NCBI GenBank assembly: GCA_903874955.1
Contig: CAIQTY010000030.1
Span: 7,846-71,845 of the forward strand
Origin: an uncultured Alphaproteobacteria bacterium
GTDB taxonomy: Bacteria; Pseudomonadota; Alphaproteobacteria; Paracaedibacterales; CAITNM01
Length of the DNA: 64,000 bases
Direction: 5' to 3'
Positions 3,818-52,916 of the stretch are shown here, piece after piece. Each line of letters starts with the position of its first letter. The first letter of the stretch is position 1. The position numbers and the translations under genes are program-made. The notes below the pieces were generated by a model, which saw nothing but the letters and a program-made list of their open reading frames with translations, was not told the DNA's origin and did no database searches.

Positions 3818-4206
3818 ATGTTTATTAACGAAATAAATATTACATCTCTTTTAAAAGCTTTTAAAAAATTCGAAACGTTTCGTCTTAATAGCAATAGTGA
3901 ACAAGAAAAAGCAGGAACAATTCATGCATTTGAGTATTGTTTTGAATTAATTTGGAAAACAATGAAACGCCTGCTTGCAGAGAAAGGTAAAATACAAACT
4001 CTCCAAAAGAAACCTTTAGAATGGCTGCTCTAGAGGGATTTATTGACAATCCCGAACTGTGGTTCGAATTTCTAAGAAAGAGAAATATGACCGCACATAC
4101 CTATGAAGAGTCAGAGGTAGAGAGTGTCCTATCAATATGTGCTGTATTTTCCGATGAAGTTAAGAAATTTTTAAAATCTATTGGCGTCCCAAATGATCAA
4201 TATTGA
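3818..4206 (+). pseudogene. HEPN-domain protein (HI0074-type nucleotidyltransferase substrate-binding / HepT-like toxin), frameshifted
   Basis: Two ORFs (3818-4033 frame 2, 4021-4206 frame 1) together give one HI0074-like protein: AGTIHAFEYCFELIWKTMKRLL...(shift)...NSPKETFRMAALEGFIDNPELWFEFLRKRNMTAHTYEE. The Rx4H motif is at 4081-4098. The frame switch lies between about 3989 and 4000, near an A-run. Confidence 0.75.
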
Positions 4207-4519
4207 GCCACAGCATTTAAAAATTGTAGAAAATATTTTAAAAAAATATCCTTATAGTTTTTTTGTTTTTGGATCACGAATAACTGCTAAAGCTAGAACT
4301 TTTTCAGATTTAGATTTATGTTTTTTTGAGGATATACCTACAAAAATACAAATTCAAATAGAAGAAGATTTTGAAGAATCTGATTTACCTTATAAAGTTG
4401 ATATAGTGAATTGGCAAAGTTGCAATCAAGAATTAAAAAATGTTATCTCAAAAAACATGAAATGTTTGCAAGAGGGCCCAAATCATTTCACGATTGACAA
4501 GATTTTTAATTCCCATTAA
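4193..4519 (+). CDS. minimal nucleotidyltransferase (MNT / MntA-like antitoxin partner of HEPN)
   Basis: GSRITAKARTFSDLDL matches the GS-x9/10-DxD polymerase-beta-type NTase motif. It overlaps the end of the HEPN gene by 14 nt. Confidence 0.8.
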   Translation: MINIEPQHLKIVENILKKYPYSFFVFGSRITAKARTFSDLDLCFFEDIPTKIQIQIEEDFEESDLPYKVDIVNWQSCNQELKNVISKNMKCLQEGPNHFTIDKIFNSH

Positions 4520-4830
4520 AAAAAATCGCCATGTTAGCGATTTCCTCCCCAAAAAAACTTAAGCAAGCCGCAAATCAGTACGTTGTGAGAATCAAGTCTT
4601 GGCGGGGGCATAGTTTTTGGTTTGGCTATCTTTACTATTTTTAAATAGCTCATTTTAATTATTTTTTGTGAAACTTTAATTTGATTGATAATTTTTTAAA
4701 AACACTCCCCTAAATTTTTTAGTGATCATTACGAAATAATTATAATTAGCTAGCTTTTTAACTAATTTTAAACGATTTAGTGCCTATTATTATTCATTAT
4801 CGTGTTTTTACGTAAAATGAATTAGGCAAA

Positions 4831-5907
4831 ATGGATTTGATTTTTAAGAAAATATGCTTAATCAGTTTCATAGTTTTTATGAACACCTTGCCAAGTCTAA
4901 AATCGGCTTCAGCAGTTAATCAAAAAATTAGTAAACCTTTTAAAATTTTTATGGTGCTTTGGTCTGGAGAAGATCAACTTACAAAAGGATTTAAAGATTA
5001 TTTAAAAAGAGAAAATATACCCACCGAATATATTATTCGAAACTGTGCACAAGACCGAAATAAATGTAGAGAGTTTCTCAAAGAAATAAAGAAAGAAAAA
5101 CCAGATTTAATTTTTACATGGGGAACTGCTATATGCGAGGAAATTGCAGGAAAAATAGATGCACCTAATAAAAGTGATTATATCTGGGATATTCCAATTG
5201 TAAGCCTGATTGTAACAGATCCTATCGCGGCAAAATTAATTTATAGCCTGGAAAAACCTGGACGTAACGTCACCGGTGTCAATCATGTGGCCCCTGTTAC
5301 GTCTCATTTGGAAACGATGAAGACCTATAAGAAAGATCTTAAAAAAATCGCAGCGCTCTACAATCCTGCTGAAACTAACGCGGTCGTAATGGTAAAACAA
5401 ATTATTGAACAAAGTTCAAAATACCGTGTCGAAGTTAAAGCTTATCCCATCAGGCTTGATGAAAATAAAAAACCAATAGTAGCTTCTATTAGCGAAAATA
5501 TTGAAAAAATTGCTCAAGATGGCGCTGAATTTATATATATGCCAGCGGAAACTTTTTTATCACTAAACATGCCTACTGTTTCTGCAGAAGCTGTAAAATA
5601 TAAAATTCCGACTTTTGGCTCAACAGAATCTATGTTTTTCAACGGACACCCTCTAATTGGATTAGTGAGTAGATTTTATAACGTTGGTCTTTTCGGGGGA
5701 TTGAAAGCAAAACAAATTCTTATGGAAAAGAAAAATCCGCAAGAAATTGCTTATGAAAAATTAAAAACATTTTCTGTTCTAATTGCACCAGATATTTTTA
5801 GATCAATAAAAAATTATCCTCCTCTAGAAATGTTCGGTTACGGCGAGTTTATTGCGGAAGCAGATAATGAAAATGACAATAAAAAGCCTGTGAAGGTTAG
5901 AGGTTAG
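4831..5907 (+). CDS. periplasmic substrate-binding protein (ABC_sub_bind / BMP-like family)
   Basis: Signal-like N-terminus (ICLISFIVFMNTLPSLKSASA). Alternating beta-alpha pattern with a NVTGV motif typical of PF04392-type binding proteins. No ABC permease or ATPase is adjacent. Confidence 0.65.
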   Translation: MDLIFKKICLISFIVFMNTLPSLKSASAVNQKISKPFKIFMVLWSGEDQLTKGFKDYLKRENIPTEYIIRNCAQDRNKCREFLKEIKKEKPDLIFTWGTAICEEIAGKIDAPNKSDYIWDIPIVSLIVTDPIAAKLIYSLEKPGRNVTGVNHVAPVTSHLETMKTYKKDLKKIAALYNPAETNAVVMVKQIIEQSSKYRVEVKAYPIRLDENKKPIVASISENIEKIAQDGAEFIYMPAETFLSLNMPTVSAEAVKYKIPTFGSTESMFFNGHPLIGLVSRFYNVGLFGGLKAKQILMEKKNPQEIAYEKLKTFSVLIAPDIFRSIKNYPPLEMFGYGEFIAEADNENDNKKPVKVRG

Positions 5908-5908
5908 T

Positions 5909-8029
5909 ATGGAAGAATTTTTAAAACGATATTTTGATAAAATTATCCTTAAAATTTTATTTCTTACAGTTATTTCTAGTACCGGCATAGGTCTAATGCT
6001 GTTTTATTTTCATACATCCGCTCAAAAAGAAATGCTTTCAACTGAAATCACCAATAGGTCTGTAGCCTCTGGAAATTCTATTGCATATATAATCACTAAA
6101 GCTATTCAGGTAGGCATTCCTTTTGATGAGATGGTGAAAGTAAATGAATTTATTTCTGAAAATGAAAAAAAACTCACAGATGTAGACTACATTGCAATTA
6201 CCGACATAAAGGGAAAAACCCTTTACAAATCGGATAGCTTGCCAAATTCTTTGAAAGGTTCGTTCAAGCGCTTTGCATTGACTACAGAACCCGATGATGA
6301 ACTCAAAGCTTATGACGTGCAAAACTACTACAATATTCCAATTAAAATCGTTTATAAAAAACAAATTTATGGTTACTTGCATTTAGGAATATCGAAAAAA
6401 ATAACAACAAATCGCATTATGGATATTTACTATGATATTTTAACAATTCTTTTTGTATCCATGATAGCTGGTGCTGAGTTTTTTCTTTTTATCTTCAGAA
6501 ATAGAATTCAACTTACAATGATGGATTTATTTAGCACGATGCGGAAAATCACGAACGGTAACTTTTCCACATTAACATGTATTCGCACCCTAAATAGTAT
6601 AAGTGCCGTTACCGAAAAATTTAATATCATCATTTCCTCAATTGCGTCAGAGTACGCTGCTTTAAAGTCAAAAATAGATAAGATTTTCGAAAAAAGTAGC
6701 AATACAGGGCAATACATAATGATAAAAGAGCAACTCACAAAATTCACTAAAAAATATTATTTACCTCAAGATGAGAAGCCTCATCAAGAAGTTCTTCAAC
6801 CAACCGTGCAAAATATGAGGTTACCTGCATTTTTAATGGTACTTGCAGAAACAGTCTTAGTAGCTATATTACCTGGTTACGCTAGTCAGTTTTATGACCC
6901 TGCAATGGGATTAACTAAAGAATTTATTAGTGGCTCACCTATTCTTGTCTTCATGATTGCTTCTACCCTAGGCGTGCTGATGTCCAGCAAATTGTCTTAT
7001 AATTTTGGTTTCAGAAAAAGTATTATGATTGGAATTTCAATTTCGGCCTTAGGCTATATTGTTTCATTTTCTACATCAGGCTTAATTTTGATGCTTATTG
7101 CAAGAGCAATTACAGCATTTGGTTACGGTATCTCATACGCGTGCTTACAAAATTATATTGCAGCTTATGCGCCCACTGGTCGCAAAATTGAGTGTTACGC
7201 TGTTTTTGCGATAGCATTTGGAGCTGCCTATATTTGTGGTGCTCCGATTGGAGGAATACTCGTTGACAACATAGGTTTTAAGTTCACTTTTGCCGTTGCT
7301 GCTTTTGCATCAATTGCATCATTGTTAATTACTTCGAATTTTCTTATTGATTTTCACGATAAAACCTTACGACAAGCCCGTGAACCAAAAAAGAAACCAA
7401 TGGAGTTACTAAAAAACAAATCATTTATGGTAACTTTAATTAGCGGAGCTATGCCAGCAAGATTAATGTTTTCTTCGCTTATCTGCCTATTTTATCCTTT
7501 ATATTTGCGTAATTTAGGTTTCTCACAGTCATCTACAGGAAGAAATTTGATGATCTTCGGGGTCGTTACGTTTGCTTTTTCTGGACTCGCCGCAAAAGCA
7601 ATTGAGAAACTAAAGAAATACAGCACTTTCATTCTATTTATGAGTATTTTTTTGATAAGCGTATCTATATCAATACCGATATTCTTCAAATCAGATTTTG
7701 CACCAAGTATAGCTTTATTGCTTTATTCTATTTCTGCAGTTATTCATACTTGCATTATATTGTCAATTTTAGAAGATTTTTCTATCAAAGAATATGAAAA
7801 TTATAGAAAAAGTACAGTTCTTGCATATTATTTCACGACGGAACGAATAGGTATGACTATGGGACCAGCGCTTATTAGTACTTTATTGCATGCTTTAAGC
7901 TTTACAAAGACCATGCTCGTACTCGCAATTTTTATGTTTATATTCAGCATGATATACGGAATATTTCATTTCTTTAATAGAAAGTTCCCTAAGATCACAA
8001 AAAATCTGAGATATGAGGAGCAATCATGA
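5909..8029 (+). CDS. fusion protein: N-terminal two-TM extracytoplasmic sensor-like domain + HAMP-like linker + C-terminal MFS transporter domain
   Basis: The first ~200 aa contain TM, a ~140-aa loop, then TM. An amphipathic linker follows (TMRKITNGNFS...). The last ~400 aa are multi-TM with MFS-like loops (GFRKSIMIG, ARAITAFGYG). Start is 1 nt after the stop of the binding-protein gene. Confidence 0.6.
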   Translation: MEEFLKRYFDKIILKILFLTVISSTGIGLMLFYFHTSAQKEMLSTEITNRSVASGNSIAYIITKAIQVGIPFDEMVKVNEFISENEKKLTDVDYIAITDIKGKTLYKSDSLPNSLKGSFKRFALTTEPDDELKAYDVQNYYNIPIKIVYKKQIYGYLHLGISKKITTNRIMDIYYDILTILFVSMIAGAEFFLFIFRNRIQLTMMDLFSTMRKITNGNFSTLTCIRTLNSISAVTEKFNIIISSIASEYAALKSKIDKIFEKSSNTGQYIMIKEQLTKFTKKYYLPQDEKPHQEVLQPTVQNMRLPAFLMVLAETVLVAILPGYASQFYDPAMGLTKEFISGSPILVFMIASTLGVLMSSKLSYNFGFRKSIMIGISISALGYIVSFSTSGLILMLIARAITAFGYGISYACLQNYIAAYAPTGRKIECYAVFAIAFGAAYICGAPIGGILVDNIGFKFTFAVAAFASIASLLITSNFLIDFHDKTLRQAREPKKKPMELLKNKSFMVTLISGAMPARLMFSSLICLFYPLYLRNLGFSQSSTGRNLMIFGVVTFAFSGLAAKAIEKLKKYSTFILFMSIFLISVSISIPIFFKSDFAPSIALLLYSISAVIHTCIILSILEDFSIKEYENYRKSTVLAYYFTTERIGMTMGPALISTLLHALSFTKTMLVLAIFMFIFSMIYGIFHFFNRKFPKITKNLRYEEQS

Positions 8030-8829
8030 AATTTTCAAAAAAACTTAGTAATAAAATTTGGGGATTTTCCTTCATAACAATTAGTTTAACCCTATTGCTT
8101 CTCACCGTGTTAATGCACTTCAAATACAAAATGACAAGATTAGACCTTATTAACGCACGCTATAGTATTTTGCTTAATGATATGAAGTGGGCAATTGAAC
8201 GTGGTATGAGTCTAGGGGTTGACTTATCAGAACTAAAAAACGTTCAGCATATAATAGACGATGGCTTACAAAAAGATAAAACAATAAAAGACATTGTTGT
8301 ATTTAACTTCAAAAATAACAAAAATAATAATATTTTTGCAACCCATCCAGAAGAAATTCAAATATCGTCAGACATAAGTAAAAGAATTATAGAAGCGTTG
8401 TATTCAACTAAAAAAGATTTTTGGTCCATAGAAATAAATGAACAAAGAAGTTTTGTAGGAATAAATTTTACAGATGCTCTAGGTATTATTACGGGAGGAA
8501 TATATTTAGTTTATTCACCTGAAATTATTAAAAATAATTCCCAAGAAGAAATCAAAAATTTATATTTAAGAATGCTAGCGTTTTTGAGCGTAATATTCTT
8601 AGTAAGCTACATAATAAGTTACAAAACAATTAAACATATTGAATCTTCTTTAACGAAAATTAGCACTTACTTAGACGTATTTATTAAAAGCCCGAAAGAA
8701 GCTGATGATCCAACCAAAATTCCAATTGAAGATATTGATTTAAGACAAGAATTTATAAAATCAGTTAAAAACGCAAAAGTTACATTTAAATCTCTTGGGC
8801 AACTTAGACGATTGTGCGACGACAAGTAG
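8026..8829 (+). CDS. two-TM membrane protein with extracytoplasmic sensor-like domain and no recognisable output domain
   Basis: Contains TM (FSFITISLTLLLLTVLM), a ~150-aa loop, TM (LAFLSVIFLVSYIISY) and a ~70-aa tail. ATGA overlap with the upstream gene. Confidence 0.45.
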   Translation: MKFSKKLSNKIWGFSFITISLTLLLLTVLMHFKYKMTRLDLINARYSILLNDMKWAIERGMSLGVDLSELKNVQHIIDDGLQKDKTIKDIVVFNFKNNKNNNIFATHPEEIQISSDISKRIIEALYSTKKDFWSIEINEQRSFVGINFTDALGIITGGIYLVYSPEIIKNNSQEEIKNLYLRMLAFLSVIFLVSYIISYKTIKHIESSLTKISTYLDVFIKSPKEADDPTKIPIEDIDLRQEFIKSVKNAKVTFKSLGQLRRLCDDK

Positions 8830-8841
8830 AAGGATTGTATT

Positions 8842-11007
8842 ATGATGGGTTCTTTTAGAAGCATTAGAAACGAAATTTTAATAAAAGTTATTTTTATATT
8901 AGTATTTTCTATATGTGCTTCTGTTGCTTACAACTATTTTGCTGGAACAGCATTGGCTATTGCTAATGCCTCAAAATCCATTCAAAAACTTAACTCATCC
9001 ATAATTTTTCGCTCGACAAGTTATTTACTTGATTCGAACAATATTGCTCAACGCGGAGCAAATTTGGTTAGCAAAGGTTTTTTATCAAATACATTTGAAG
9101 CAGCTTTAGATTATATGTTTGACGTATTAAAAACTTCTGCTGTTACGCATAGTTTAAGCGTTGGTCTAGAAAAAGGCTTCTACATGAGCCTCAGTAAAAT
9201 TTCGAAGGAATCTGATAAAATTGAGGATATTCCAGAAAATGCAGCCTTTATTTTACGTGTAATTAAAAATGGATTTAGCGACTCAGAAATACAAGAAACT
9301 TTTTATGATAAAAATCAAATTGAGATTCCTTTTAAACCAAATAAAAAAAACTTTAGCGTTAGTGACTTCCGTAAACTTTTTTGGTATTCGAAGTCTTTTG
9401 AAAGCAACGAGGCCTGTTTATCAGATATTCATGTTCATAGTGAGCAAAATCTTCCTTGTATCACCGCATCCATACCAGTGCATGACAACAACAAACAAAA
9501 AATTGGTGTGTTTGCTGCAAGTATTAGCACTCAAGAGCTCTCTAGTTTTATTAATGATATGCTCCCAACCGATTATTCAAATTCCTTCATTGTTGATAAT
9601 GATAGAAAAATTATAGCGAGCTCGGATTTAGAAAAAACGACAGTCCATGACAAACAAAATAATATTTCTATCATTACCAGTAAAAATTTAACTGATAACA
9701 CTTTAGACATGGCATTAAATCAGTACAAAAGTGATTTGAAAGGCAAAGATTTAGATGAAAATATTTTTTATTTCAAGAACGACAAAGCTAATTTTATTGT
9801 ATCCATCAATAATTTTCCTATCTCTGTTGGATTAAATTGGAGACTAGTTTCTATAACACCTTCATCAGTATTTACAGTGGATGCATTTAATATTCAGCAA
9901 AATAGCATTTACCTAGCCGTAGTGATTTTATTGATTGCTATGTTCATGGTTTATTTTGAAGCTCAAAAACTTTCGGAACCAATAAAACACTTGGCAATAG
10001 AGGCAAAAAAAATTCAATCATTAGATTTAGGTGACATCATGTTTCTTAATTCAGATATTGCTGAAATTCGTGAGCTCACTGACACAATGGAAGCTTCAAA
10101 AAGAAACTTACAAAATTTTTCTAAGTACGTTCCAAAAGGACTTGTTAAACAGTTTATTGAAAGTCAGGAAGAAGTTGAAATCGGAGGAAGTACAAAAGAG
10201 ATAACAATAATGTTTACTGATGTTGCAAACTTTACAACAGTTTCAGAATCGATGTCTCCACAAGAACTGATGATTCATATTTCAGATTATTTTGATAATT
10301 TAACCAACATCATTATCGAAAATAATGGAACAGTCGATAAGTTTATCGGTGATGCAATTATGGCATTTTGGGGGGCACCAGTTGCAAACGCAAATCAAAC
10401 TATTGATGCATGCCGGACAGCACTTTTATGTCAGCAATCCCTAAATAGTCTCAATAATTTTTGGAAAGAAAGTGGAAAAGCCCAGCTTGTTACAAGATTT
10501 GGTATTAATTTTGGCAATGCTGTTATTGGTAATGTTGGATCCTCGGAGAGAATGAACTACACAGCAATTGGTGATACGGTTAACCTTGGGGCACGTTTAG
10601 AAGGAATTAACAAAATGTATGGCACCAACGTTATTATTAGTGATTCAGCTTATGAACGATTAAATCCTAATTTTATTGTACGTCCCTTAGATGTTGTAAC
10701 TGTTAAAGGTAAATCAAACCATACAAAAATTTATGAGTTGGTTGGAATAAAGGATGACAAAGAACTTTACCCGATACCTGAAAAACATGTTACTTTTTGC
10801 GAAAATTTCACAACTGCTTTTGATTTTTATTTAGAAGGGAATTGGGCAAAAGCAAAAAAAGCTTTTGAACTCTTAAACACCCTTAACCAAAAAGAGCTTC
10901 ATTATCAAGATATTCTTATACCAGTTTACATAAAAAGATGTGCTGATTTTATTAAAAATCCACCCAAAAATGGTGTATTTGAGGCAAGGCATTTAGATGA
11001 AAAATAA
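8842..11007 (+). CDS. membrane-bound class III adenylate/guanylate cyclase with Cache-like periplasmic domain and HAMP
   Basis: TM, a ~310-aa extracytoplasmic region, TM, a HAMP-like segment, then cyclase motifs: ITIMFTDVANFT, KFIGDAIMAFWGAP, RFGINFGNAVIGNVGS, YTAIGDTVNLGARLEG. Confidence 0.8.
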   Translation: MMGSFRSIRNEILIKVIFILVFSICASVAYNYFAGTALAIANASKSIQKLNSSIIFRSTSYLLDSNNIAQRGANLVSKGFLSNTFEAALDYMFDVLKTSAVTHSLSVGLEKGFYMSLSKISKESDKIEDIPENAAFILRVIKNGFSDSEIQETFYDKNQIEIPFKPNKKNFSVSDFRKLFWYSKSFESNEACLSDIHVHSEQNLPCITASIPVHDNNKQKIGVFAASISTQELSSFINDMLPTDYSNSFIVDNDRKIIASSDLEKTTVHDKQNNISIITSKNLTDNTLDMALNQYKSDLKGKDLDENIFYFKNDKANFIVSINNFPISVGLNWRLVSITPSSVFTVDAFNIQQNSIYLAVVILLIAMFMVYFEAQKLSEPIKHLAIEAKKIQSLDLGDIMFLNSDIAEIRELTDTMEASKRNLQNFSKYVPKGLVKQFIESQEEVEIGGSTKEITIMFTDVANFTTVSESMSPQELMIHISDYFDNLTNIIIENNGTVDKFIGDAIMAFWGAPVANANQTIDACRTALLCQQSLNSLNNFWKESGKAQLVTRFGINFGNAVIGNVGSSERMNYTAIGDTVNLGARLEGINKMYGTNVIISDSAYERLNPNFIVRPLDVVTVKGKSNHTKIYELVGIKDDKELYPIPEKHVTFCENFTTAFDFYLEGNWAKAKKAFELLNTLNQKELHYQDILIPVYIKRCADFIKNPPKNGVFEARHLDEK

Positions 11008-13976: not shown

Positions 13977-14783
13977 TTAAAGCTTACGTGATGCCCGTCT
14001 GTGCATCACAAGACCACTTATGAGAATTCCCACGCTCACAATACCCACAATAATTGTGGCTAGGGCGTTTAGCTCTGGGGTAACGCCTGTGCGAACACTT
14101 GAAAATACTAGGATAGGTAGTGTAGTTGCTCCTGGACCAGCCAGAAAGCTAGCAATGACGACATCGTCTAATGATAGCGCAAAGGCTAATAACCAGCCTG
14201 CAAGTAATGATGGAAAGATTAAAGGAAGAGTTATTTTAAAAAATACTGTAGAAGGCTTTGCACCAAGATCCATCGCTGCTTCTTCTAATGACTTATCAAA
14301 ATCAGTTAATCGGGCTTGCACAACCAAATATATGTAAGACATTGTAAGGGTTATATGAGCAATGATGATCGTCAGCATACCTCGTTCTGAGGGCCACCCG
14401 ATTGAACGTTCCAACGTCACAAACATCAGCAGCAAAGCAAGCCCTGTAATAACTTCCGGCATCACCAATGGCGCAGAGATCAGGCCGCTAAATAAAGTTT
14501 TACCTGCAAAGCGTTTGAATCGCACCATAACGATTGCTGCCATCGTTCCTAGCGCAACAGATAAAGTCGCAACAATAGCTGCAATTTCAAAACTATTAAG
14601 CACAGCACGAATAAGAGCGTCATCTTCGAATAATTTCGCATACCAACGAGTTGAAAATCCTGACCAAACACCAATGATTCTTGAATCATTAAATGAATAA
14701 ACCATAAGATACAAAATTGGAACGTATAAGAACCCATAACCAAAAATCAGCGCCCCAAGATTAAATTTTGAAAAACGAATCAT
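13977..14783 (-). CDS. spermidine/putrescine ABC transporter permease (PotC/PotI-type)
   Basis: Six-TM permease with the EAA-like loop SLEEAAMDLGAKPSTVFFKITLPL. Last gene of an F-G-H-I-ordered operon. Confidence 0.85.
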   Translation of the reverse strand: MIRFSKFNLGALIFGYGFLYVPILYLMVYSFNDSRIIGVWSGFSTRWYAKLFEDDALIRAVLNSFEIAAIVATLSVALGTMAAIVMVRFKRFAGKTLFSGLISAPLVMPEVITGLALLLMFVTLERSIGWPSERGMLTIIIAHITLTMSYIYLVVQARLTDFDKSLEEAAMDLGAKPSTVFFKITLPLIFPSLLAGWLLAFALSLDDVVIASFLAGPGATTLPILVFSSVRTGVTPELNALATIIVGIVSVGILISGLVMHRRASRKL

Positions 14784-15736
14784 TACAGCGCTGCTTTCTC
14801 GGTAGCTTCTAATTGGCGATTTTTTAAAATCATAATCGGCACAACAAACAAGAACACCATAAGAACAGCCACTGCACTTGCTAAAGGCCAGTTTCTGTTA
14901 TTAAAAAACTCCCACCAAAGTACTCTTCCTATTGTGACTGTTTCGGGCCCCCCCAAGATTTCAGGGATAACAAATTCACCAATTGAAGGCAGAAAAACAA
15001 GAATGATGCCGGCTATAATTCCCTGTTTGGATAAGGGCACAGTAATAGACCAAAACGCTCTCCACGGAGAGCATCCAAGGTCGTGAGCAGCTTCAATAAA
15101 ATCATTATTAATTTTAATTAAGGAAGCATAGATCGGAAAGACCATAAAAGGTAAATAACAATAAATGATTCCCAAACACACAGCGGCATCATTATCCAAC
15201 AACTGTAAGGGAGTGGCAATTATATTTAATTTTAAAAGGATACTGTTTATTAGCCCCTTATTGCTTAACATCGCCATCCAGGCATATACGCGAATAAGAA
15301 AAGAGGTCCAAAAAGGAAGCGCTATCATAAGCAATAAAGGCATTCTCCAAGAAGTTTTAACTCGTGAAATGCTATAAGCAATCATGTACCCCATTATCAA
15401 ACAACCAATAGTTGAAAATAGAGCTATCCTTAATGAACTTAAAATAGCGTGTAGATAAAAATTATCTGTAAAAACAGTCCAGTAACTTTCAAAATGGAGA
15501 CGAATTTTTAAAAGAAGATCAGGCGTCCATTCAACAATATTGCGAAAAGGAGGGATGCCAACCTGCAGTTCAGAAAAACTAATTTTAAAAATAATCAGAA
15601 ACGGAAACAGAAAAAATAAACTAACCCAAGCGTAAGGAATGAAGATAATAAGCCATTTATCACGTAATTTTCTACCTATATAGCGAAGCTCGCTTAAGCA
15701 GAAATCTAAAAAATTCAATACTATCCCAAAAATCAT
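14783..15736 (-). CDS. spermidine/putrescine ABC transporter permease (PotB/PotH-type)
   Basis: EAA loop FIEAAHDLGCSPWRAFWSITVPLS. Overlaps both neighbouring genes. Confidence 0.85.
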   Translation of the reverse strand: MIFGIVLNFLDFCLSELRYIGRKLRDKWLIIFIPYAWVSLFFLFPFLIIFKISFSELQVGIPPFRNIVEWTPDLLLKIRLHFESYWTVFTDNFYLHAILSSLRIALFSTIGCLIMGYMIAYSISRVKTSWRMPLLLMIALPFWTSFLIRVYAWMAMLSNKGLINSILLKLNIIATPLQLLDNDAAVCLGIIYCYLPFMVFPIYASLIKINNDFIEAAHDLGCSPWRAFWSITVPLSKQGIIAGIILVFLPSIGEFVIPEILGGPETVTIGRVLWWEFFNNRNWPLASAVAVLMVFLFVVPIMILKNRQLEATEKAAL

Positions 15737-16884
15737 ACGCTCAATACAACACCATTTTCTGGTCTCCAGAATAAGTATACCTCGTCATCCCATTTTACAT
15801 CGCGTTCTGATAAGCGAAGTAAATTTGGCGATGAAGCTTGAACAATTTTTCCCGAATCTAATTGGACATGATAAATACTAATATCTCCGAGATACCCTAT
15901 TTCACGCACAATTCCCTTTGTACAGTTGCGTCCAAAATTAGGATTTGGACTCGTTGAGATCATCACTTTTTCGGGGCGCAAAGCAACAGTTACATTTGCT
16001 CCAACTGGCATAGAAGCTGCATGGGTTACGTAAAGTTCACAACCTGCTTCTGATGATTCTATCACAACATGATCGGGCTCATCTTCAACAACGACACCTT
16101 CAAACATATTCATCGAACCAATAAATTCAGCCACAAAACGAGAATGAGGAAATTCATAAATCTCATGAGGCTTTCCAATTTGCCTAATTTGCCCTTCATC
16201 CATAATTCCAATTCGACTAGACATGGTCATCGCTTCTTCTTGATCATGAGTTACTACAACGAAAGTAATCCCCACGCGCTCTTGAATATTCACTAATTCG
16301 AATTGAGTTTTTTCTCGTAATTTTTTATCCAGGGCACCCAGCGGTTCATCTAACAGCAACAGTTTTGGTCGCTTTGCAAGACTGCGAGCAAGCGCAACGC
16401 GCTGCTGCTGCCCACCTGAGAGTTGCTCAGGTTTACGATCTTGGTATTTGCGAAGTTGAACTAAATCAAGCACTTCATCAACTCGTTCGATTATTTGGTT
16501 TTTTGACAGCTTTTCCTGTTTCAAACCGAAGCTTATATTGTCATACACCGTCATATGCGGAAACAACGCATAAGATTGAAACATCATACTGACAGGGCGT
16601 TTATAGGGCGGCAGGTCAGTTATATCAAGATCATCAATAACAATCCTTCCGCTAGAGGGCCGTTCAAGCCCAGCAAGAATTCGCAGTAATGTTGATTTAC
16701 CACAACCAGACCCCCCAAGTAGCGCAAACAATTCTCCACGATAAATTGAAAGAGACAGATTTTTAACAGCAACTGTTGTACCAAAATTTTTATTAATATT
16801 TTCAATCAACACATAGGGTTTGGCATTCGAATCCTGCCAGGGTTCAAGATTCCTTATATATTCTCTACTTGCAGTAATTGACAT
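15733..16884 (-). CDS. spermidine/putrescine ABC transporter ATP-binding protein (PotA/PotG-type)
   Basis: Walker A GGSGCGKST, signature LSGGQQQRVALAR, Walker B LLLLDEP and a C-terminal TOBE-like domain. Confidence 0.9.
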   Translation of the reverse strand: MSITASREYIRNLEPWQDSNAKPYVLIENINKNFGTTVAVKNLSLSIYRGELFALLGGSGCGKSTLLRILAGLERPSSGRIVIDDLDITDLPPYKRPVSMMFQSYALFPHMTVYDNISFGLKQEKLSKNQIIERVDEVLDLVQLRKYQDRKPEQLSGGQQQRVALARSLAKRPKLLLLDEPLGALDKKLREKTQFELVNIQERVGITFVVVTHDQEEAMTMSSRIGIMDEGQIRQIGKPHEIYEFPHSRFVAEFIGSMNMFEGVVVEDEPDHVVIESSEAGCELYVTHAASMPVGANVTVALRPEKVMISTSPNPNFGRNCTKGIVREIGYLGDISIYHVQLDSGKIVQASSPNLLRLSERDVKWDDEVYLFWRPENGVVLSV

Positions 16885-16895
16885 ATCAAATCTTT

Positions 16896-18026
16896 CTAGT
16901 ATTCATTGAGACGAATTTTTGCCCATACCCTTGTACGTTCTCTCTCAAAAAGAACTTCTTGGGACGTTTTTGGAGGCGTATTTAAAAATAACTTTTTTAT
17001 GATATTTTTCCCAGGAAAAATTCCTTGATTATCAACAATATGCTTAGATAAATACTTTTTAGCACCACTTACTGCAATACCATGTTTTGTATTCTTGCAT
17101 ATACGCGCCGCAACATGTGGCTTTAGCATAAAATTAATAAAAGCATGAGCATTTTTGGGATGAGGTGCTCCTTTGGGAATCGCCATGGCATCTATCCAGG
17201 TGATACCCCCATCAGACGGAACATAATATTCAATATTTTTACCTTGGTCTTTTGCTTCCTCGATAGCTTGTTGTGCTTCCCCCGACCAAACCAATGCCAA
17301 AGCTGTGTCCCCCAAAACAATATCATTAACAACCCGTGATGAAGTAAATCTCTTGATATAAGGCCTCATTTTCATAAGATGCTTTGCTGCTGCATCAAGA
17401 TCTTCAAATGATGTCGAGTTTGGATTTTTATTAACATACATCAATGCAAACGGGATAACATCAACCCCCTCTTCAAGCAATGAAACACCATATTTACTTA
17501 TTTTTTGAAGATTTTTAGGATTAAACAGTAACGCTAGATTTTTCTCATAACCTCCTGGAAAAATCATATCAATAATATCTTTATTATACACTATACCAAC
17601 TGTCCCCCAAAAATACGGAAGCGAATAGGTAAGATCTTTATCTATAGCGCTCATCCAGCGCACCACTTGAGGATCAAGCTCTTTAATATTTGGCAATAAG
17701 TTTTTATCAAGTTTTTGATAGACACCCGCTTGAATTTGCCATGCTACATATGGACTTGATGTAGGGAAAACGACATCAAAACCACTATTACTAGCAAGAA
17801 GTTTTGCTTCCAATACTTCATTATTATCGTAAGCGTCTAATCTGACAGTAACACCCGTTTCATTTTCAAATTCTTTTATTGTTTCCGGATCTATTAATCC
17901 GTACCAACAGTACACATTAACATATTTATCCTCCGGCTGACGGGGGGCAGGCTTGAAATAATACCATACTCCAATACCAACTAGAGAAACTAGCAGTAAC
18001 AAACGAAACAAAAAACGAGAAAACAT
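16896..18026 (-). CDS. polyamine (putrescine/spermidine) ABC transporter substrate-binding protein (PotF/PotD-type)
   Basis: N-terminal TM/signal followed by a PotD/PotF-like sequence (VNVYCWYGLIDPETIKEFENETGVTV...). First gene of the operon, as in potFGHI. Confidence 0.85.
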   Translation of the reverse strand: MFSRFLFRLLLLVSLVGIGVWYYFKPAPRQPEDKYVNVYCWYGLIDPETIKEFENETGVTVRLDAYDNNEVLEAKLLASNSGFDVVFPTSSPYVAWQIQAGVYQKLDKNLLPNIKELDPQVVRWMSAIDKDLTYSLPYFWGTVGIVYNKDIIDMIFPGGYEKNLALLFNPKNLQKISKYGVSLLEEGVDVIPFALMYVNKNPNSTSFEDLDAAAKHLMKMRPYIKRFTSSRVVNDIVLGDTALALVWSGEAQQAIEEAKDQGKNIEYYVPSDGGITWIDAMAIPKGAPHPKNAHAFINFMLKPHVAARICKNTKHGIAVSGAKKYLSKHIVDNQGIFPGKNIIKKLFLNTPPKTSQEVLFERERTRVWAKIRLNEY

Positions 18027-39377: not shown

Positions 39378-41360
39378 TTATCTTCCCATATCAGCAATAC
39401 GGCCAATCATACGCCAGTAATTATTAAGAAAACTAAAATACAAATCTTGGCTTTTCGAAATTTGCATAGATCGCATCGCTATCTCTTGTTCGTCCATACC
39501 ATAATTTTGTGAAAAAAGTGCCTCTTGTTGTCTATAAGCCTCAGACTGGGCTTCCATATCCGACTTGAGAAAACCAACTTCACTTGCAACTTGATTAACC
39601 AAACTTGTAGAAAAGGATTCTAAAGTCTGCGTGACTGTTGCCCCTGTTGGTGTTACGAACTTAGTATTCGTTCTGGTAAACAGATCACTCAAAGCACGAC
39701 CAATACTTGGATCTCCAGATACAGCCTGAGCAGCAAGATCAAGTGTTTCATCATTTCTCAATTGTCTAATAGAAAAGCCGTTGGGGTTACTGAGGATCGT
39801 ACTATTAACACTAATCGATGAAGCTAAACCAGCAATAGTACCATCGCGCCAAAATTGCGGCTGCGTCGTAATAAAATCATTTAAATGAAAAAATTCAGCG
39901 AATCCATAAGCTGTAGATCCGACCGTACTAAGAGAAACCGTAGGTAGGGCTTGACCAGAAACACTTCCAAGGCTTACTCCGCAACCAGCATCTGATGTGC
40001 TAATTTGAAGCGTCCCATTAACAATAGTTGCATTAACATGCCCTGCAAGCGTTGGATTGTTATTAATCAAGTAACATAAGCCATTTACATCAGTTGCTTG
40101 ATATATAGTTGAACCTTGGGCAATCGCTGAAGATAGATCTATATCCGCTGTAGCAGTAGCAACATTAGAAGTATTGTTAATGACGGCAACCCTGAGAACA
40201 CCCTGAGCTGTAATAGGTAATGCACCCACAACACTGCTTCCCCCGATATATCCTGGCCCTCCTTGCAAAATTGGCGCTGGATTAATGGCAGAACTCAAAT
40301 TATGAACCGCGTTAAACGAATCACGTAATCCTGCTGCATAGCTATCAAGCTGCTGTCCAAATTGAACAGAATCAGTTTGAAGAAATTGCATTAGACCTGA
40401 TAAAGATCCTCCAAGCGAATTACTAAAATCTTTTGAGACATCAAAAATGAAAGCTTCTTGCCTGCGATCATAATAATTAGGATCCCCAGGATAATTAGGA
40501 TTTGTAGAACTGGTATCTGTTCCCGTTGATGGAGACTCCTGCGAAGTTGTGTCAGCACCTATAGATTGTAAAGAAATTGTTCCCGGTCCAAAAGTTTGAG
40601 AAGCATCAATTTGGGCTGCCGGTGAAAAAATATACTGAGCTGCCAAAGAATCTTGAACAATGACCCTACCGTTTGGAGTATAGACTAAGAAAGAACCAGT
40701 TTTATCTGAAACCTGAATTTGCATATATTCAGATAATTTATCAAGCATCACTCTTCGTTGACGTAAATACGAAATATTGCTACCAGAAGCACTTCCAGAA
40801 GTACTCATACTGGCATTAATCCCAGCTATATCTGTTAGAAGTTGGTTGATTTCAGCTATTTGGCCAGCAAAATCATTCGATGCGCTGTTTCGGATGTTTT
40901 GTAATGTATTAGCTGCATTTGCTATTTGACGAAGATGATCTTTAACAGCATTGATCACAGCCATTTTGTTGGCCGGAATATCTCCCCCTTGGCTGCAAAT
41001 TGTGTTGATAGTGGTTACTATTTTGTTACCACTATTAATGAAGGTATTAGTGCCTCCCATGTGACCAAAGACTTTTTCAAATTCAGCAAGGTACTTTTGT
41101 AAATTTTCACTACTCTTTATTTGAGAGCTCAAACCCCTTAATTGATTTTCCGCGTCTCCATCGGTAACTTCCTTGACTTCCCCTTCGCTAATACCGATTG
41201 CATTTCCGTTGGAGTAGTATATGGAAGATTCTTGAATTGTTTTTGTAAAACCTGGTTGATCCATTGCGATCATATCAAGTTCTAGGTGCTTCATTTCTCT
41301 AAATTTTTGCCGTAACCCTGCTAGAGCCAGACCTGCACCAGAACCCCAAATTTCAGTCAT
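39378..41360 (-). CDS. flgK: flagellar hook-associated protein 1 FlgK
   Basis: 660 aa. N-terminal rod/hook-type helix and C-terminal GMDEQEIAMRSMQISKSQDLYFSFL, compared with the FlgK GVNLDEE..L..YQ.AYQA pattern. Confidence 0.8.
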   Translation of the reverse strand: MTEIWGSGAGLALAGLRQKFREMKHLELDMIAMDQPGFTKTIQESSIYYSNGNAIGISEGEVKEVTDGDAENQLRGLSSQIKSSENLQKYLAEFEKVFGHMGGTNTFINSGNKIVTTINTICSQGGDIPANKMAVINAVKDHLRQIANAANTLQNIRNSASNDFAGQIAEINQLLTDIAGINASMSTSGSASGSNISYLRQRRVMLDKLSEYMQIQVSDKTGSFLVYTPNGRVIVQDSLAAQYIFSPAAQIDASQTFGPGTISLQSIGADTTSQESPSTGTDTSSTNPNYPGDPNYYDRRQEAFIFDVSKDFSNSLGGSLSGLMQFLQTDSVQFGQQLDSYAAGLRDSFNAVHNLSSAINPAPILQGGPGYIGGSSVVGALPITAQGVLRVAVINNTSNVATATADIDLSSAIAQGSTIYQATDVNGLCYLINNNPTLAGHVNATIVNGTLQISTSDAGCGVSLGSVSGQALPTVSLSTVGSTAYGFAEFFHLNDFITTQPQFWRDGTIAGLASSISVNSTILSNPNGFSIRQLRNDETLDLAAQAVSGDPSIGRALSDLFTRTNTKFVTPTGATVTQTLESFSTSLVNQVASEVGFLKSDMEAQSEAYRQQEALFSQNYGMDEQEIAMRSMQISKSQDLYFSFLNNYWRMIGRIADMGR

Positions 41361-41372
41361 ACTGACCCCCTC

Positions 41373-41813
41373 CTACGCCATTTGCTGCACACCAAGGCTT
41401 GGCGCGTAAGAAGTTTCAAACATTTTTCCTGAAGATGTATAAAAAAATGGCTTAATTTTTATTTTATCAAAACACAGTTCCATGAGTTTCTTACTACCGC
41501 GTTTTGAAATATCTAATAAACTAATATTGTTTTTCATTCCTAGAACAACAGCTTTGAGTAAACGATTTACGTTTTGTTGTTCAGGCTTACTCAGCTGCTT
41601 CCAACAAGATTGTTCAAGAATTTGCGAAGCCAAGTCTTGATTAGCTTCAAAAAGTTCCGTTTTCTTTTGAAGAAAAGAATCTAATTCGTTTAATCTCACG
41701 TCTTTAATGTATTGCTCTTCCATTTGCATAACTTGCAATAAACTTTCAGCTGACGTGCAAAATCGGTCATAAATTTCAGAGAAGGACATTAACAATTCCT
41801 TTCTTTTGATCAT
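41373..41813 (-). CDS. FlgN-like flagellar export chaperone (tentative)
   Basis: Small helical protein immediately upstream of flgK, as flgN is in many operons. No strong motif. The start could be the Met at 41789. Confidence 0.35.
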   Translation of the reverse strand: MIKRKELLMSFSEIYDRFCTSAESLLQVMQMEEQYIKDVRLNELDSFLQKKTELFEANQDLASQILEQSCWKQLSKPEQQNVNRLLKAVVLGMKNNISLLDISKRGSKKLMELCFDKIKIKPFFYTSSGKMFETSYAPSLGVQQMA

Positions 41814-42183
41814 CTAGCTCTTTTGCAGCTTTTTGCTGAGAATTTGGAAACGATGCTTCTGAGTTTTTTTCCAAACCCATACTGGTATAAAGACTCTTTT
41901 TGATGCTAGCTCGGATATTCAGAGATTCAGCACCACCAGAATGTGAAAGTGCATCGATAAACATAGAACGCAATATTCCAGCAGCGTGGCTGTCACCCCA
42001 CAAAGCACTGTCTTGAGTAGTTGAAAACATTGATTTTACTAAATTGGCGTAACACATCGACTGAAATTCCCCGGCGACCCTATCAATTTCTTTTTCACTA
42101 GTTCGACTAGAAGCAAGAGATTCCAGTCTATTCATGCTAGATTGTGAAGAAAGCGATGAAATATCGATATTCGGTTGAATCAT
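41776..42183 (-). CDS. flagellar rod-binding protein (FlgJ N-terminal domain-like, no muramidase domain)
   Basis: AGEFQSMCYANLVKSMF...LWGDSHAAGILRSMFIDALSHSGG resembles the Rod-binding (FlgJ N-terminal / CheL) family. Located after flgI. Confidence 0.7.
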   Translation of the reverse strand: MIQPNIDISSLSSQSSMNRLESLASSRTSEKEIDRVAGEFQSMCYANLVKSMFSTTQDSALWGDSHAAGILRSMFIDALSHSGGAESLNIRASIKKSLYTSMGLEKNSEASFPNSQQKAAKELDDQKKGIVNVLL

Positions 42184-42186
42184 TAT

Positions 42187-43839
42187 CTAACTCACTATAA
42201 CTTCTGCGTGTAATGCACCAGCTGATTTTATACTTTGCAAAATTTGTGCCATTTCCCTTGGAGACGTGCCCAAAAGGTTTAGAGCATTTACAAGTTCTTC
42301 CAAATCAGCACCTGCATCTAAAATTGCAAATTTTCCTTTTTGCTCCTCAATTTTTAGATTTGTTTCAGGCACGATAGTTGCTTGCTGCAAAGGCGTATTG
42401 GTATTCAGTGCTGCATTTATCATAGAAGGAGCTTGATTTAAAAAGTTTTGCCCAGAATTTCCAGATTTCGCAGGCGTAGTAGGTTCAGCAGGAATAGCTG
42501 CAATCGCTTTAGATATCTGAGCAGGAGTAGCCGTAGTGGGCAAAGCTTTCAATGCTGTGGCTACAATTGCAGGAGAGACATCCCCAGGAATAACAGCTGT
42601 AGCAGCCTCGGCTGCACCATCGGCTTTAGGAACAATAGCATTTATTGCCGCTGCTATGGCTGATGCAGAAGCCGTTGCAGGAAGGGCTGCAAGGACTCCA
42701 CCTATTGCTGCGGGATCTGCACCCACTGGAATAAGAGTTGTTGCTGAAGGCTGCGTTGATGCTTTCGCTGAAGTTTGAGACAAATCAGATTGTCCTTGAA
42801 TATTCGTACCATTAACTGCCAACCCCAGTCCCAAAGGAGCCCCAGAATTATTCGCTAGAGGATTAACAACCTGCGTAAATGGATTCGGCTGAGAAACCGA
42901 TGCAGATTCAGCAATACGAACAGTAATTGATCCATGGGTTAGTGCCACTGTGCTAACACGAACTTTATTTCCAAGCACAATCACACCCGAAGGATCGATA
43001 ATGACTTTAGCGATCTGATCCGGCTCAATCTCTAGCTGTTCAATTTGGGTCATGGCATCGATAACTTTTTGCAAAGACCCCTTAGGTAATTCAACGTTTA
43101 TAGAAGCTGAATCCTGCGTGGAGGCAACAGTGCGTTGAAAATGCCCATTGATTGCTTCTGCAACACGTTTTGCCGTTGTTAGATCAGGGCTATGAAGACT
43201 TAAAGTTTGATTTTTAAGATCTGTCAGTTGGAAAGTAATTTCCTTTTCAACAATGGCGCCGTTTGGAATTTTCGCGCTTGTTGGTATTCCTGTTACTTGA
43301 GAAGCTGCTGCGCCGCCTGCAGCAACACCTGAAACAATAACTTCCCCCTGCCCAACCGCATAAACTTCGCCATCAGCACCCATCAAGGGAGTAACTAGCA
43401 AATTTCCACCGTTCAAATCCTTCGCATCGCCAAGCGCAGAAACAACAATATCGATTGTTGTTCCTGTTCTTGCAAAAGGAGGTAATTTAGCCGTTACCAT
43501 TACAGCTGCTACGTTTTTACCCGAAGGAACAGAACCATCACGAATATTAACCCCTAAACGCTCAAGCATTCCCGTTAGACTTTCTTTGGTATAGGGTGAG
43601 CTTGCTAAGGTATCCCCCGTTCCATTTAAACCAACGACTAGACCATATCCAACCAGTTGGTTATCGCGAATACCAGCAAATCTGGAAATGTCTTTAATAC
43701 GAACTCTAAGAGCTTTATTTGAAGAAGCTGGTGTGCGAATCACTGCTTTATGAGTAATAAGTTGAGGCTCCTTTAATACAGCTCCCGCATAAACAGTGAA
43801 GCTAAAAATGCAGCATAAAATGGTATATAAAATAACCAT
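42187..43839 (-). CDS. flgI: flagellar P-ring protein FlgI with a ~165-aa internal low-complexity insertion
   Basis: VRIKDISRFAGIRDNQLVGYGLVVGLNGTGD, LVTPLMGADGEVYAVGQG, THGSITVRI...VSQPNPF, then C-terminal LEELVNALNLLGTSPREMAQILQSIKSAGALHAEVIV. Total 550 aa, versus roughly 370 aa that I recall as typical. Confidence 0.9.
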   Translation of the reverse strand: MVILYTILCCIFSFTVYAGAVLKEPQLITHKAVIRTPASSNKALRVRIKDISRFAGIRDNQLVGYGLVVGLNGTGDTLASSPYTKESLTGMLERLGVNIRDGSVPSGKNVAAVMVTAKLPPFARTGTTIDIVVSALGDAKDLNGGNLLVTPLMGADGEVYAVGQGEVIVSGVAAGGAAASQVTGIPTSAKIPNGAIVEKEITFQLTDLKNQTLSLHSPDLTTAKRVAEAINGHFQRTVASTQDSASINVELPKGSLQKVIDAMTQIEQLEIEPDQIAKVIIDPSGVIVLGNKVRVSTVALTHGSITVRIAESASVSQPNPFTQVVNPLANNSGAPLGLGLAVNGTNIQGQSDLSQTSAKASTQPSATTLIPVGADPAAIGGVLAALPATASASAIAAAINAIVPKADGAAEAATAVIPGDVSPAIVATALKALPTTATPAQISKAIAAIPAEPTTPAKSGNSGQNFLNQAPSMINAALNTNTPLQQATIVPETNLKIEEQKGKFAILDAGADLEELVNALNLLGTSPREMAQILQSIKSAGALHAEVIVS

Positions 43840-45313: not shown

Positions 45314-45395
45314 CTGAAGAAGAAAACTCTTAGGTTATAGCATTTAAGAGTATTTTAGTGCTCTAGGTATTAATAAAATATTAAATAAAATATAA

Positions 45396-52833: not shown

Positions 52834-52916
52834 TAACTGTAACTTAATTATATGCCTATAAACAAATTATCAGCAATTCAGATCTTGAAAGGTGACTTTA
52901 CTCAAAGCCACAAAAT

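Follow-up and report, generated by a model that had tools for sequence, protein, structure and literature searches.

The question raised by positions 4831-11007 of the analysed DNA is what a secreted solute-binding protein (SBP), a sensor fused to a transporter of the major facilitator superfamily (MFS), a second sensor-like protein devoid of an output domain, and a receptor-type nucleotide cyclase might do together. The four genes (g1 to g4) are located on contig CAIQTY010000030.1 of an uncultured alphaproteobacterium, in a stretch of 64 kb which is hereafter called the window, i.e. the whole stretch of DNA that was analysed. In the original prediction, made from the letters alone, three sensors and an orphan SBP were taken to converge on one cyclase, and transport-coupled signalling was suggested. 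The answer that we favour, tentatively, is an SBP-coupled, HAMP-gated MFS complex consisting of g1, g2 and g3, to which g4 would belong as a clade-specific, exchangeable signalling partner. The genes and the region preceding them are as follows (aa, amino acids; TM, transmembrane helix; sCache and dCache, single and double Cache domain; ORF, open reading frame).

4520-4830, + strand: AT-rich intergenic region of 311 nt, presumed, from its position only, to be the promoter region of the four-gene unit
4831-5907, + strand: g1, secreted PF04392 (ABC_sub_bind) SBP, 358 aa
5909-8029, + strand: g2, sensor-MFS fusion, 706 aa, from the six-frame ORF list
8026-8829, + strand: g3, TM/sCache-like/TM protein of 267 aa without an output domain, its cytoplasmic tail consisting of two helices
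8842-11007, + strand: g4, TM/dCache_1/TM/HAMP-like/class IIIb adenylate cyclase, 721 aa

Organisation of the four genes

The junction between g1 and g2 reads GGTTAG-T-ATGG, with a gap of 1 nt, and that between g2 and g3 reads GAGGAGCAATCATGA, where the two genes overlap by the 4 nt ATGA, behind a Shine-Dalgarno-like GAGGAG. The third junction, between g3 and g4, is TAG-AAGGATTGTATT-ATG, in which the 12-nt gap contains AAGGA. The packing of the four genes, with ribosome-binding sites at the junctions, is operon-like. The gene coordinates, the 1-nt gap, the ATGA overlap and the 12-nt gap of the original prediction were reproduced exactly in the six-frame ORF list, the hydropathy topologies of g1-g4 agreed with its description, and its domain calls for all four genes held in the profile assignment that it had called for (Pfam together with hydropathy).

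The region upstream of g1 (4520-4830) gave zero Rfam matches at E≤1, and no riboswitch was seen there. A consensus promoter scan produced nothing above chance, and a terminator scan likewise remained at or below chance. The source bacterium is low-GC. A class-V aminotransferase gene adjoins the module both in the window and on the P0004 contig, and was not found to be a conserved neighbour.

Conservation of the triad and of the four-gene unit

Co-conservation of the four genes, which the original prediction had proposed as a check, was found to hold through three gene orders and amid unrelated flanks. The order g1-g2-g3-g4 is present in the window, in L005, in L008 and on the P0004 contig, the order g2-g3-g4-g1 in L009, L010 and L094, and the order g3-g2-(61-aa ORF)-g1-g4 in the distant low-GC lineage L011; in L004, g2-g3-g4 are located at the start of the contig. 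Within the window clade, g2 identity ranges from 29 to 69%, the flanks of the four-gene unit are unrelated between contigs, and the cyclase was seen in every context examined. Such persistence across unrelated flanks and three orders indicates more than chance, and chance adjacency was rejected on this basis.

A profile of the g2 sensor alone, searched against 1.84 billion representatives, retrieved 1593 proteins at E≤1e-3 and 612 clusters at E≤1e-10. The 150 best sensor matches included 147 new representatives, 123 of which carry the same MFS body, the other 24 being short. Judged by these matches, the g2 sensor domain is apparently a dedicated one, occurring almost only on this MFS body.

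Gene neighbourhoods were taken from several sources. The metagenome scan was seeded from P0080, a soil-clade protein with ca. 22% identity to the window g2, and covers the 80 closest relatives, i.e. one clade in depth. The genome-contig scan yielded 3 loci, all in alphaproteobacterial metagenome-assembled genomes, and the taxonomic breadth derives from the metagenome scan, a plasmid collection and single look-ups; the census is one of few clades sampled deeply. In the 80 soil loci, a g3-like gene, a sensor-MFS gene and a PF04392 SBP gene were found on one strand wherever the flank suffices, and no cyclase was present within 7 kb. The same triad was identified in Beggiatoa leptomitoformis (WP_062152344.1, labelled 'MFS transporter'), Azospirillum brasilense Sp7 (NZ_CP012915.1, about 597.5-601.6 kb) and Vibrio sp. 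THAF190c, and in triad loci the SBP gene often overlaps the end or the stop codon of the MFS gene.

In total, the triad was recovered from at least about 90 loci, the majority of them without a cyclase inside 7 kb. Since most triads are without the cyclase, the conserved core is the triad and not a convergence on the cyclase: by gene content, g1-g2-g3 is evidently an autonomous and widespread triad, with the cyclase as a lineage-specific addition. The view that three sensors and an orphan SBP converge on one cyclase was therefore kept in its domains and its co-conservation and abandoned in its architecture, as the core is the triad and g3, as described below, the partner half of g2.

The sensor-MFS fusion and its partner half

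Five segments were distinguished in g2.

5939-6010, + strand: TM1, from hydropathy
6011-6430, + strand: periplasmic single-Cache/PDC-like domain, residues 35-174 (~140 residues)
6431-6502, + strand: TM2, from hydropathy
6503-6694, + strand: HAMP-like two-helix linker, residues 199-262
6812-7978, + strand: MFS transporter body, residues 302-690

According to hydropathy, the first two TM helices of g2 comprise residues 11-34 and 175-198, and the MFS helices then span residues 302-690 in about 11-12 hydrophobic segments. Full-length homologues of g2 share 38-69% identity with it. The body was identified as MFS_1 (residues 307-653, E-value 9.6e-29, 100.8 bits against a cut-off of 33.4 bits), and the MFS family profile was nearest to DHA-type H+ antiporters, i.e. 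VMAT2 (7e-20), NorA (6e-16), EmrB, YajR and MdfA, with a Rv1410-like transporter structure (8pnl, 6.8e-6) also among the matches. The named family members encountered in this analysis carry the labels 'MFS transporter' or 'arabinose efflux permease' only.

Four intramembrane charges are kept family-wide as well as in the window protein, namely E314 (98/123), R399 (115/123), E645 (117/123) and R646 (112/123). Motif A, in turn (G-x-x-x-D-R/K-x-G-R-R/K, TM2-TM3), is replaced in the window g2 by S-Y-N-F-G-F-R-K, and the window clade as a whole has S-Y/N-x-x-G-F-R/Q-K at this site. The acidic residue of the motif is present in one of the 17 window-clade members, in comparison to 71 of the 106 other family members. 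Canonical motif A (SDRIGRRK) is retained in the cyclase-linked P0044.

The N-terminal 300 residues of g2 (g2-N) and the g3 protein were modelled with AlphaFold2 as monomers from shallow alignments, with a pLDDT (predicted local distance difference test) of 79 on average for g2-N and of 70 for g3. In the g2-N model, a long TM1 helix extends into the periplasm and is followed by an alpha/beta PDC core, a long helix through TM2, and two cytoplasmic helices, with model helices at residues 163-215 and 230-262; the secondary-structure elements of g3 come in the same order. The best Foldseek matches of g2-N in the PDB were full-length WalK models and kinase sCache domains (9a5d, 3.4e-7; 7dud, 3cwf, 4ywz). 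For g3, the sCache domains of WalK, KinD and CitA were retrieved, full-length WalK was the best match for both proteins, and the matches of the two models, including WalK, erWalK, CitA and KinD, reached a Foldseek probability of 1.00. Both g2-N and g3, as modelled, have the attributes of a single Cache/PDC domain, i.e. a long N-terminal helix, an alpha/beta core, and a C-terminal helix continuing into TM2.

On the profile level, sCache_3_2 was matched by the window g2 with an E-value of 0.15 and weakly by 4/10 orthologues (0.006 or weaker), and a Pfam sCache_3_2 match is on record for the Beggiatoa protein P0034. Pfam HAMP was found in the g2 linker of 2/10 orthologues (best E-value 1.2e-6) and was not detected in the window protein. 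Positions 198-262 of the g2 family profile matched a histidine kinase chimera (9trk, 3.6e-7), a match that may reflect a HAMP.

The TM helices of g3 were placed by hydropathy at residues 10-34 and 178-202, with a periplasmic domain of ~140 residues between them. The protein matched zero Pfam families, Cache-family profiles included, and HAMP was recognised by no profile in its two-helix tail. Pairwise BLASTP of g2-N against g3 returned nothing; profile comparison with hhalign aligned the two over 188 columns (E-value 1e-4), in register from TM1 to TM2. Additionally, g3-like ORFs of other lineages match the hidden Markov model (HMM) of the g2 sensor, with E-values down to 1e-12, and these family-wide cross-matches make the homology of g2-N and g3 firmer.

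Sensor modules were typed with HMMs built from diverse g3-type proteins and from g2-type modules. Among the relatives with multiple sensors, 18 out of 22 have a g3-type module 1 followed by a g2-type, MFS-proximal module 2. In P0012, module 1 scored 116 bits with the g3-type model versus 25 bits with the g2-type model, and module 2 scored 158 bits with the g2-type model versus 27 bits with the g3-type model. This recurrent fusion of the two types is the strongest evidence available that g2 and g3 form one complex. On sequence grounds, g3 is best described as a paralogue of the N-terminal module of g2, i.e. as its partner half, and no independent third sensor; the simplest arrangement suggested by these relationships is a 1:1 heteromer in which two sCache/TM modules share one MFS body.

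Two proteins, P0081 (1176 aa) and P0092 (1240 aa), have four tandem TM/sCache/TM modules before the MFS body. In L011 (6001-9354), the sensor-MFS protein P0044 continues into ca. 430 extra C-terminal residues, composed of DUF5939 (PF19363, 5e-17) and an unassigned tail. We presume DUF5939 to be a cyclase-associated domain. For the DUF5939 tail of P0044, searches for word-indexed homologues, an NCBIfam match, papers, and similarity to the cyclase domain of g4 were all negative.

The PF04392 binding protein

The product of g1 was assigned to ABC_sub_bind (PF04392) with an E-value of 2.2e-34 and 119.5 bits, against a cut-off of 25.9 bits in Pfam. Its N-terminus has a hydrophobic signal segment at residues 3-21 followed by SASA, according to hydropathy and reading of the sequence. 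Solved members of the PF04392 family bind aromatic amino acids, and the closest solved structures to g1 are 3lkv, 6hni and 3lft. With the NCBIfam TrpX model (NF041285) g1 scored 109.8 bits, the cut-off being 390 bits; by this score it is evidently a family relative and not TrpX. The known ligands of PF04392 proteins are nutrients (PMC10443332).

The remark in the original prediction that no ABC (ATP-binding cassette) permease or ATPase is nearby was correct in that g1 has no such partner close by, but incomplete, since a whole ABC importer is present at 13977-18026 (- strand). Its permeases are two BPD_transp_1 proteins, its ATPase is ABC_tran+TOBE_2, and it has a binding protein of its own, of the SBP_bac_1 family. 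This importer lies 3 kb downstream of the module on the opposite strand, and is unrelated to g1. Among those genes of the window that have a Pfam annotation, no others of an ABC importer were seen, and the triad loci with called genes are likewise without an ABC permease or ATPase beside the SBP. A canonical ABC role for g1 was rejected; the only importer seen among the Pfam-annotated genes has its own binding protein.

The receptor cyclase

In addition to its TM helices, three segments were distinguished in g4.

8947-9891, + strand: periplasmic double-Cache domain (dCache_1, MCP-like_PDC_1), residues 36-350
9976-10161, + strand: HAMP-like segment directly after TM2, residues 379-440
10192-10725, + strand: class III cyclase catalytic domain, residues 451-628

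The TM helices of g4 correspond to residues 7-35 and 351-378, with a domain of ~315 residues between them (hydropathy). Pfam matches were obtained for dCache_1 (1.3e-12) and Guanylate_cyc (2.1e-22; 80 bits, cut-off 21.9 bits), and dCache_1 was found in 7/7 g4 orthologues. In the HAMP-like segment, P380 and E408 are invariant in the alignment of 7 orthologues, and Pfam HAMP was matched in 1/7 (0.019); the segment also aligns with the Pfam-confirmed HAMP (1.4e-15) of the kinase that accompanies the triad in the soil clade.

The catalytic domain matched Pseudomonas aeruginosa CyaB (3r5g, 5.6e-29), Cya2 (2w01) and CyaC (1wc0). Its motifs FTDV, DKFIGDAIM and NYTAIGDTVNLGARLE align with their counterparts in CyaB and are invariant in the 7 orthologues, and the metal and substrate motifs of g4 are thus as intact as was first reported. 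Invariant across the 7 orthologues are also D460, K500, D504, T574, N581 and R585, of which we take D460 and D504 to be metal-binding, K500 and T574 substrate-specifying, and N581 and R585 transition-state residues; the Lys/Thr pair points to class IIIb, with ATP as the substrate. From its catalytic residues, all intact, g4 is predicted to be a class IIIb adenylate cyclase synthesising cyclic AMP (cAMP). Amino-acid binding by g4 through the corresponding motif of dCache_1 (D-P-R-x-R-P-W-Y-like) is conceivable, although the second Arg of this motif is apparently replaced (SDFRKLFWY).

In L003 (3326-5893), which is from another assembly of the same population, the cyclase gene is divided into three ORFs, with g2 and g3 intact. 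Short non-homologous stretches separate blocks that are 100% identical to the window, and the broken gene looks like an assembly artefact rather than decay.

An exchangeable fourth partner

A complete, divergent gene is located directly upstream of the g3-like gene in 27 soil loci, and in nine more it is cut by the contig end. This soil-clade partner is a protein of 860 aa composed of a Ser/Thr kinase (Pkinase), a TM, dCache_1, a second TM and HAMP, and its dCache-TM-HAMP part matches g4 at 24% over 263 residues (E-value 8e-5). In L035 (3474-6056, - strand) and 35 other soil loci the kinase partner ends in HAMP with nothing after it, which is unusual in itself.

The triad thus occurs on its own or beside either of two enzymes, a dCache/HAMP-like cyclase and a dCache-HAMP kinase, and coupling to a signalling enzyme is not obligatory. 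The presence of a kinase beside the triad in another clade strengthens the reading of transporter-linked signalling. Transport-coupled signalling, as proposed originally, remains reasonable in view of the recurrence of a second dCache-HAMP enzyme; the cyclase is nevertheless only one possible output, and the transporter itself looks like another.

Candidate mechanism and alternatives

In the scheme that we tentatively favour, the secreted PF04392 protein g1 would capture a small molecule in the periplasm, and in its loaded state would dock on a platform of two homologous single-Cache domains, contributed by g2-N and g3 in a 1:1 heteromer. From TM2 the signal would then reach the MFS body of g2 by way of the HAMP-like helices; this DHA-like and presumably proton-coupled carrier would thereby be gated by, or fed from, the binding protein. 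The dimeric dCache/HAMP-like cyclase g4 would respond with cAMP to this same cue in the periplasm or to the state in which it finds the transporter complex. The conserved and often overlapping SBP gene makes loaded g1 the most likely periplasmic input, by analogy to LuxPQ and TorTS. As HAMP precedes the MFS body in g2, the transporter appears to receive the output of the periplasmic module, and to be more than an input to the cyclase. In this scheme we infer the physical contacts, the ligand of g1, the direction of transport and the coupling of g4 to the triad. A bolder version, possible but doubtful, is that the triad represents an unrecognised class of SBP-coupled secondary transporter, the first on the MFS rocker-switch fold, in which the SBP would dock on a heterodimeric sCache pair and HAMP would relay to the carrier, with exchangeable dCache-HAMP enzymes attached, i.e. 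a modular transceptor.

Several observations weigh against the gated complex. HAMP is weak in the window proteins, as the Pfam match is not significant in g2 and g4 and there is none in the g3 tail. The homology of g2-N and g3 within the window clade alone has a moderate hhalign probability of 57%. The TrpX score of g1 is far under the cut-off, and the resemblance of the MFS body to H+ antiporters and exporters is poorly suited to simple SBP-fed import. The lost acidic residue of motif A is a hint of altered gating in the carrier of the window clade, which might transport little or nothing. Moreover, no dCache partner was present within 7 kb in 12 soil loci with enough flank, nor in Beggiatoa, Azospirillum and Vibrio.

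A pure tripartite SBP-dependent importer, in which g1 would feed the g2 pore, the sCache pair would be a docking scaffold like the small subunit of TRAP and TTT systems, and g4 would be an independent cyclase sharing the operon, is considered unlikely. Its arrangement, an SBP together with a small membrane protein and a large transporter, is the one found in at least about 90 mostly cyclase-free loci, with translationally coupled MFS and SBP genes and no ABC partner nearby, and new classes of secondary transporter that depend on an SBP are still turning up (PMC12344293). The nearest relatives of the MFS body are, however, DHA-type antiporters and exporters, and HAMP between sensor and transporter is a signalling element and not a scaffold. 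Two different dCache-HAMP enzymes recur beside the triad, unlike incidental neighbours, and where the cyclase is present the four genes remain together despite the changes in order.

In a second alternative, g2 would export a metabolite or a signal molecule by H+ antiport and g1 would bind it in the periplasm, throttling the export through the sCache-HAMP module of g2 and g3 and reporting the external level as cAMP through g4. Such a circuit would be autocrine or quorum-like, or else the exported molecule would be passed on to a binding protein as in Rv1410-LprG. The profile matches to VMAT, NorA, EmrB, MdfA and the Rv1410-like transporter would suit such a circuit, although MFS superfamily similarity is a poor predictor of direction. 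HAMP upstream of the transporter is in line with regulation of transport by a periplasmic cue, and there is a precedent for an MFS protein working with an extracytoplasmic binding protein in export (PMC6519032). As no biosynthetic genes are conserved beside the module, and the ligands known for PF04392 are nutrients (PMC10443332), an exporter with periplasmic feedback is likewise judged unlikely.

A third alternative is restricted to the window clade, whose module would be a non-transporting receptor complex with an MFS body degenerated to a sensing or anchoring part (compare UhpC and UhpB), so that g1-g3 would only control g4. The acidic residue of motif A is gone in 16/17 of this clade and kept in 71/106 others, and all window-clade contexts examined include the cyclase. 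Loss of motif A is no proof of inactivity, however; the window protein retains E314, R399, E645 and R646, and P0044 combines linkage to a cyclase with the canonical SDRIGRRK, which together render this alternative improbable.

Least of all can the four genes be regarded as an incidental neighbourhood of unrelated functions with g1 serving an ABC importer encoded elsewhere: PF04392 proteins are normally components of ABC importers according to the family annotation, but same-strand adjacency in at least about 90 loci of distant bacteria with unrelated flanks, overlapping genes, adjacency surviving three orders, and single proteins fusing g3-type and g2-type modules leave this explanation strongly disfavoured and close to negligible.

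Other genes in the window

Upstream of the module, at 3818-4519 (+), there is a nucleotidyltransferase/HEPN-like pair of the MNT-HEPN toxin-antitoxin type, in which NTase_sub_bind is split (3818-4033 and 4021-4206) and followed by NTP_transf_2 at 4193-4519. A protein of 393 aa encoded at 20031-21212 (+) matched DNase_II (PF03265) with an E-value of 7.8e-57; the DNase_II family is mainly eukaryotic and uncommon in bacteria. Aconitase is encoded in two overlapping ORFs (27932-28672 and 28648-30618, +), which cover positions 15-162 and 141-463 of the Pfam Aconitase model. The split is due to a frameshift, a pseudogene or a sequencing error, and the protein collection lists no gene for the product of the second ORF. 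The regions 24474-27521, 31401-33360, 39378-43839 and 43889-54284 encode components of the flagellar rod and rings, MotAB, FlgK and FlgI, as well as an RND efflux system that includes two ACR_tran pumps. On the basis of the flagellar and MotAB genes, the organism would be motile and probably free-living.

Comparison with known systems

No published description of the triad or of the four-gene arrangement was found in open-access full text, and the arrangement is thus, as originally supposed, not a system described there. SBP-coupled membrane complexes and transporter-linked signalling are both known kinds of system, and the individual domains are all ordinary. There is an annotation gap as well, as the sensor domain forms ~600 clusters (E≤1e-10) and has no Pfam model above threshold. 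The presence of the triad in Azospirillum brasilense Sp7, Beggiatoa leptomitoformis and a Vibrio makes it testable in culture. A UhpC-type sensor and a canonical ABC system were both rejected as the identity of the module.

In LuxP-LuxQ, TorT-TorS and NspS-MbaA, a periplasmic binding protein docks on a membrane receptor. These systems resemble the module in having an SBP gene beside that of a membrane protein with a PAS/Cache-like periplasmic domain and a cytoplasmic signalling module. As in LuxPQ and TorTS, the SBP gene of the triad adjoins a Cache-like receptor gene, and docking itself is predicted by analogy. Unlike in those systems, sensor and HAMP are followed directly in g2 by a transporter and not by a kinase or an enzyme of cyclic di-GMP, and two paralogous modules are present in an apparent heteromer.

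The class IIIb cyclases CyaB of P. aeruginosa and CyaC of Spirulina, together with HAMP-linked receptor cyclases, share with g4 the two metal Asp residues, the Lys/Thr pair, and the Asn and Arg. The sensor of g4 differs from those of CyaB and CyaC, being a periplasmic dCache_1 and not MASE2 or GAF/PAS, and g4 is conserved beside the triad.

A transporter fold coupled physically or genetically to a signalling enzyme is known from UhpC-UhpB, DctA-DcuS, LysP-CadC, CbrA and Sd-Amt1. Among these, Sd-Amt1 makes use of HAMP (PMC11152129), and CbrA is a transporter fused to a kinase (bioRxiv 10.64898/2026.03.10.710862). In the known transceptors, however, the transporter is the input and is located upstream of HAMP or the output, whereas the order is reversed in g2 (sensor, HAMP, transporter); moreover, the signalling enzyme g4 is encoded separately and has a dCache sensor to itself, and the module includes a binding protein. 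With HAMP upstream of the transporter, transport might be under the direct control of a signal from the periplasm, and the exchange of cyclase and kinase points to one sensory-transport core wired to second-messenger or phosphorylation outputs.

An output-less Cache-HAMP receptor, the CHH receptor, acts through a Ser/Thr kinase of the same operon (bioRxiv 10.64898/2026.05.25.727664), so that both g3-like proteins and contacts through HAMP have a precedent. Like it, g3 has a TM/Cache-like/TM architecture that ends in a short helical tail and lacks any enzymatic domain, and is encoded together with its presumed partners, and the soil-clade enzyme is also a Ser/Thr kinase. In contrast to the CHH receptor, g3 is without a haem motif, its tail is without a HAMP profile match, and it is most closely related to the sensor module in the neighbouring MFS protein, with which it is fused in many species.

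Rv1410-LprG likewise combines, in one operon, a DHA-type MFS protein with an extracytoplasmic ligand-binding protein (PMC6519032). LprG is, however, a lipoprotein of a different fold, and no sensor domains, HAMP or signalling enzyme belong to that system.

A parallel in layout is given by TRAP (DctPQM), TTT (TctCBA) and TAXI-GltS, in which an SBP is encoded with a secondary transporter, no ATPase is involved, and the systems are tripartite with overlapping or translationally coupled genes. Membership of the module in these classes was rejected since the SBP and carrier families differ, and the tripartite logic alone is shared. The SBP of the module is PF04392 and not DctP, TAXI or TctC, its small subunit is a sensor-like TM/sCache/TM protein, a HAMP-like element precedes the carrier, and the carrier is of the MFS rocker-switch type and not of the elevator type. 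Only TRAP, TTT and, since 2025, GltS are known to use a soluble SBP, all of them appear to be of the elevator type, and it has been asked whether the elevator mechanism is required (PMC12344293). If the SBP is functionally coupled to transport, the combination of a PF04392 SBP with an MFS carrier would be a counter-example to elevator-only SBP coupling.

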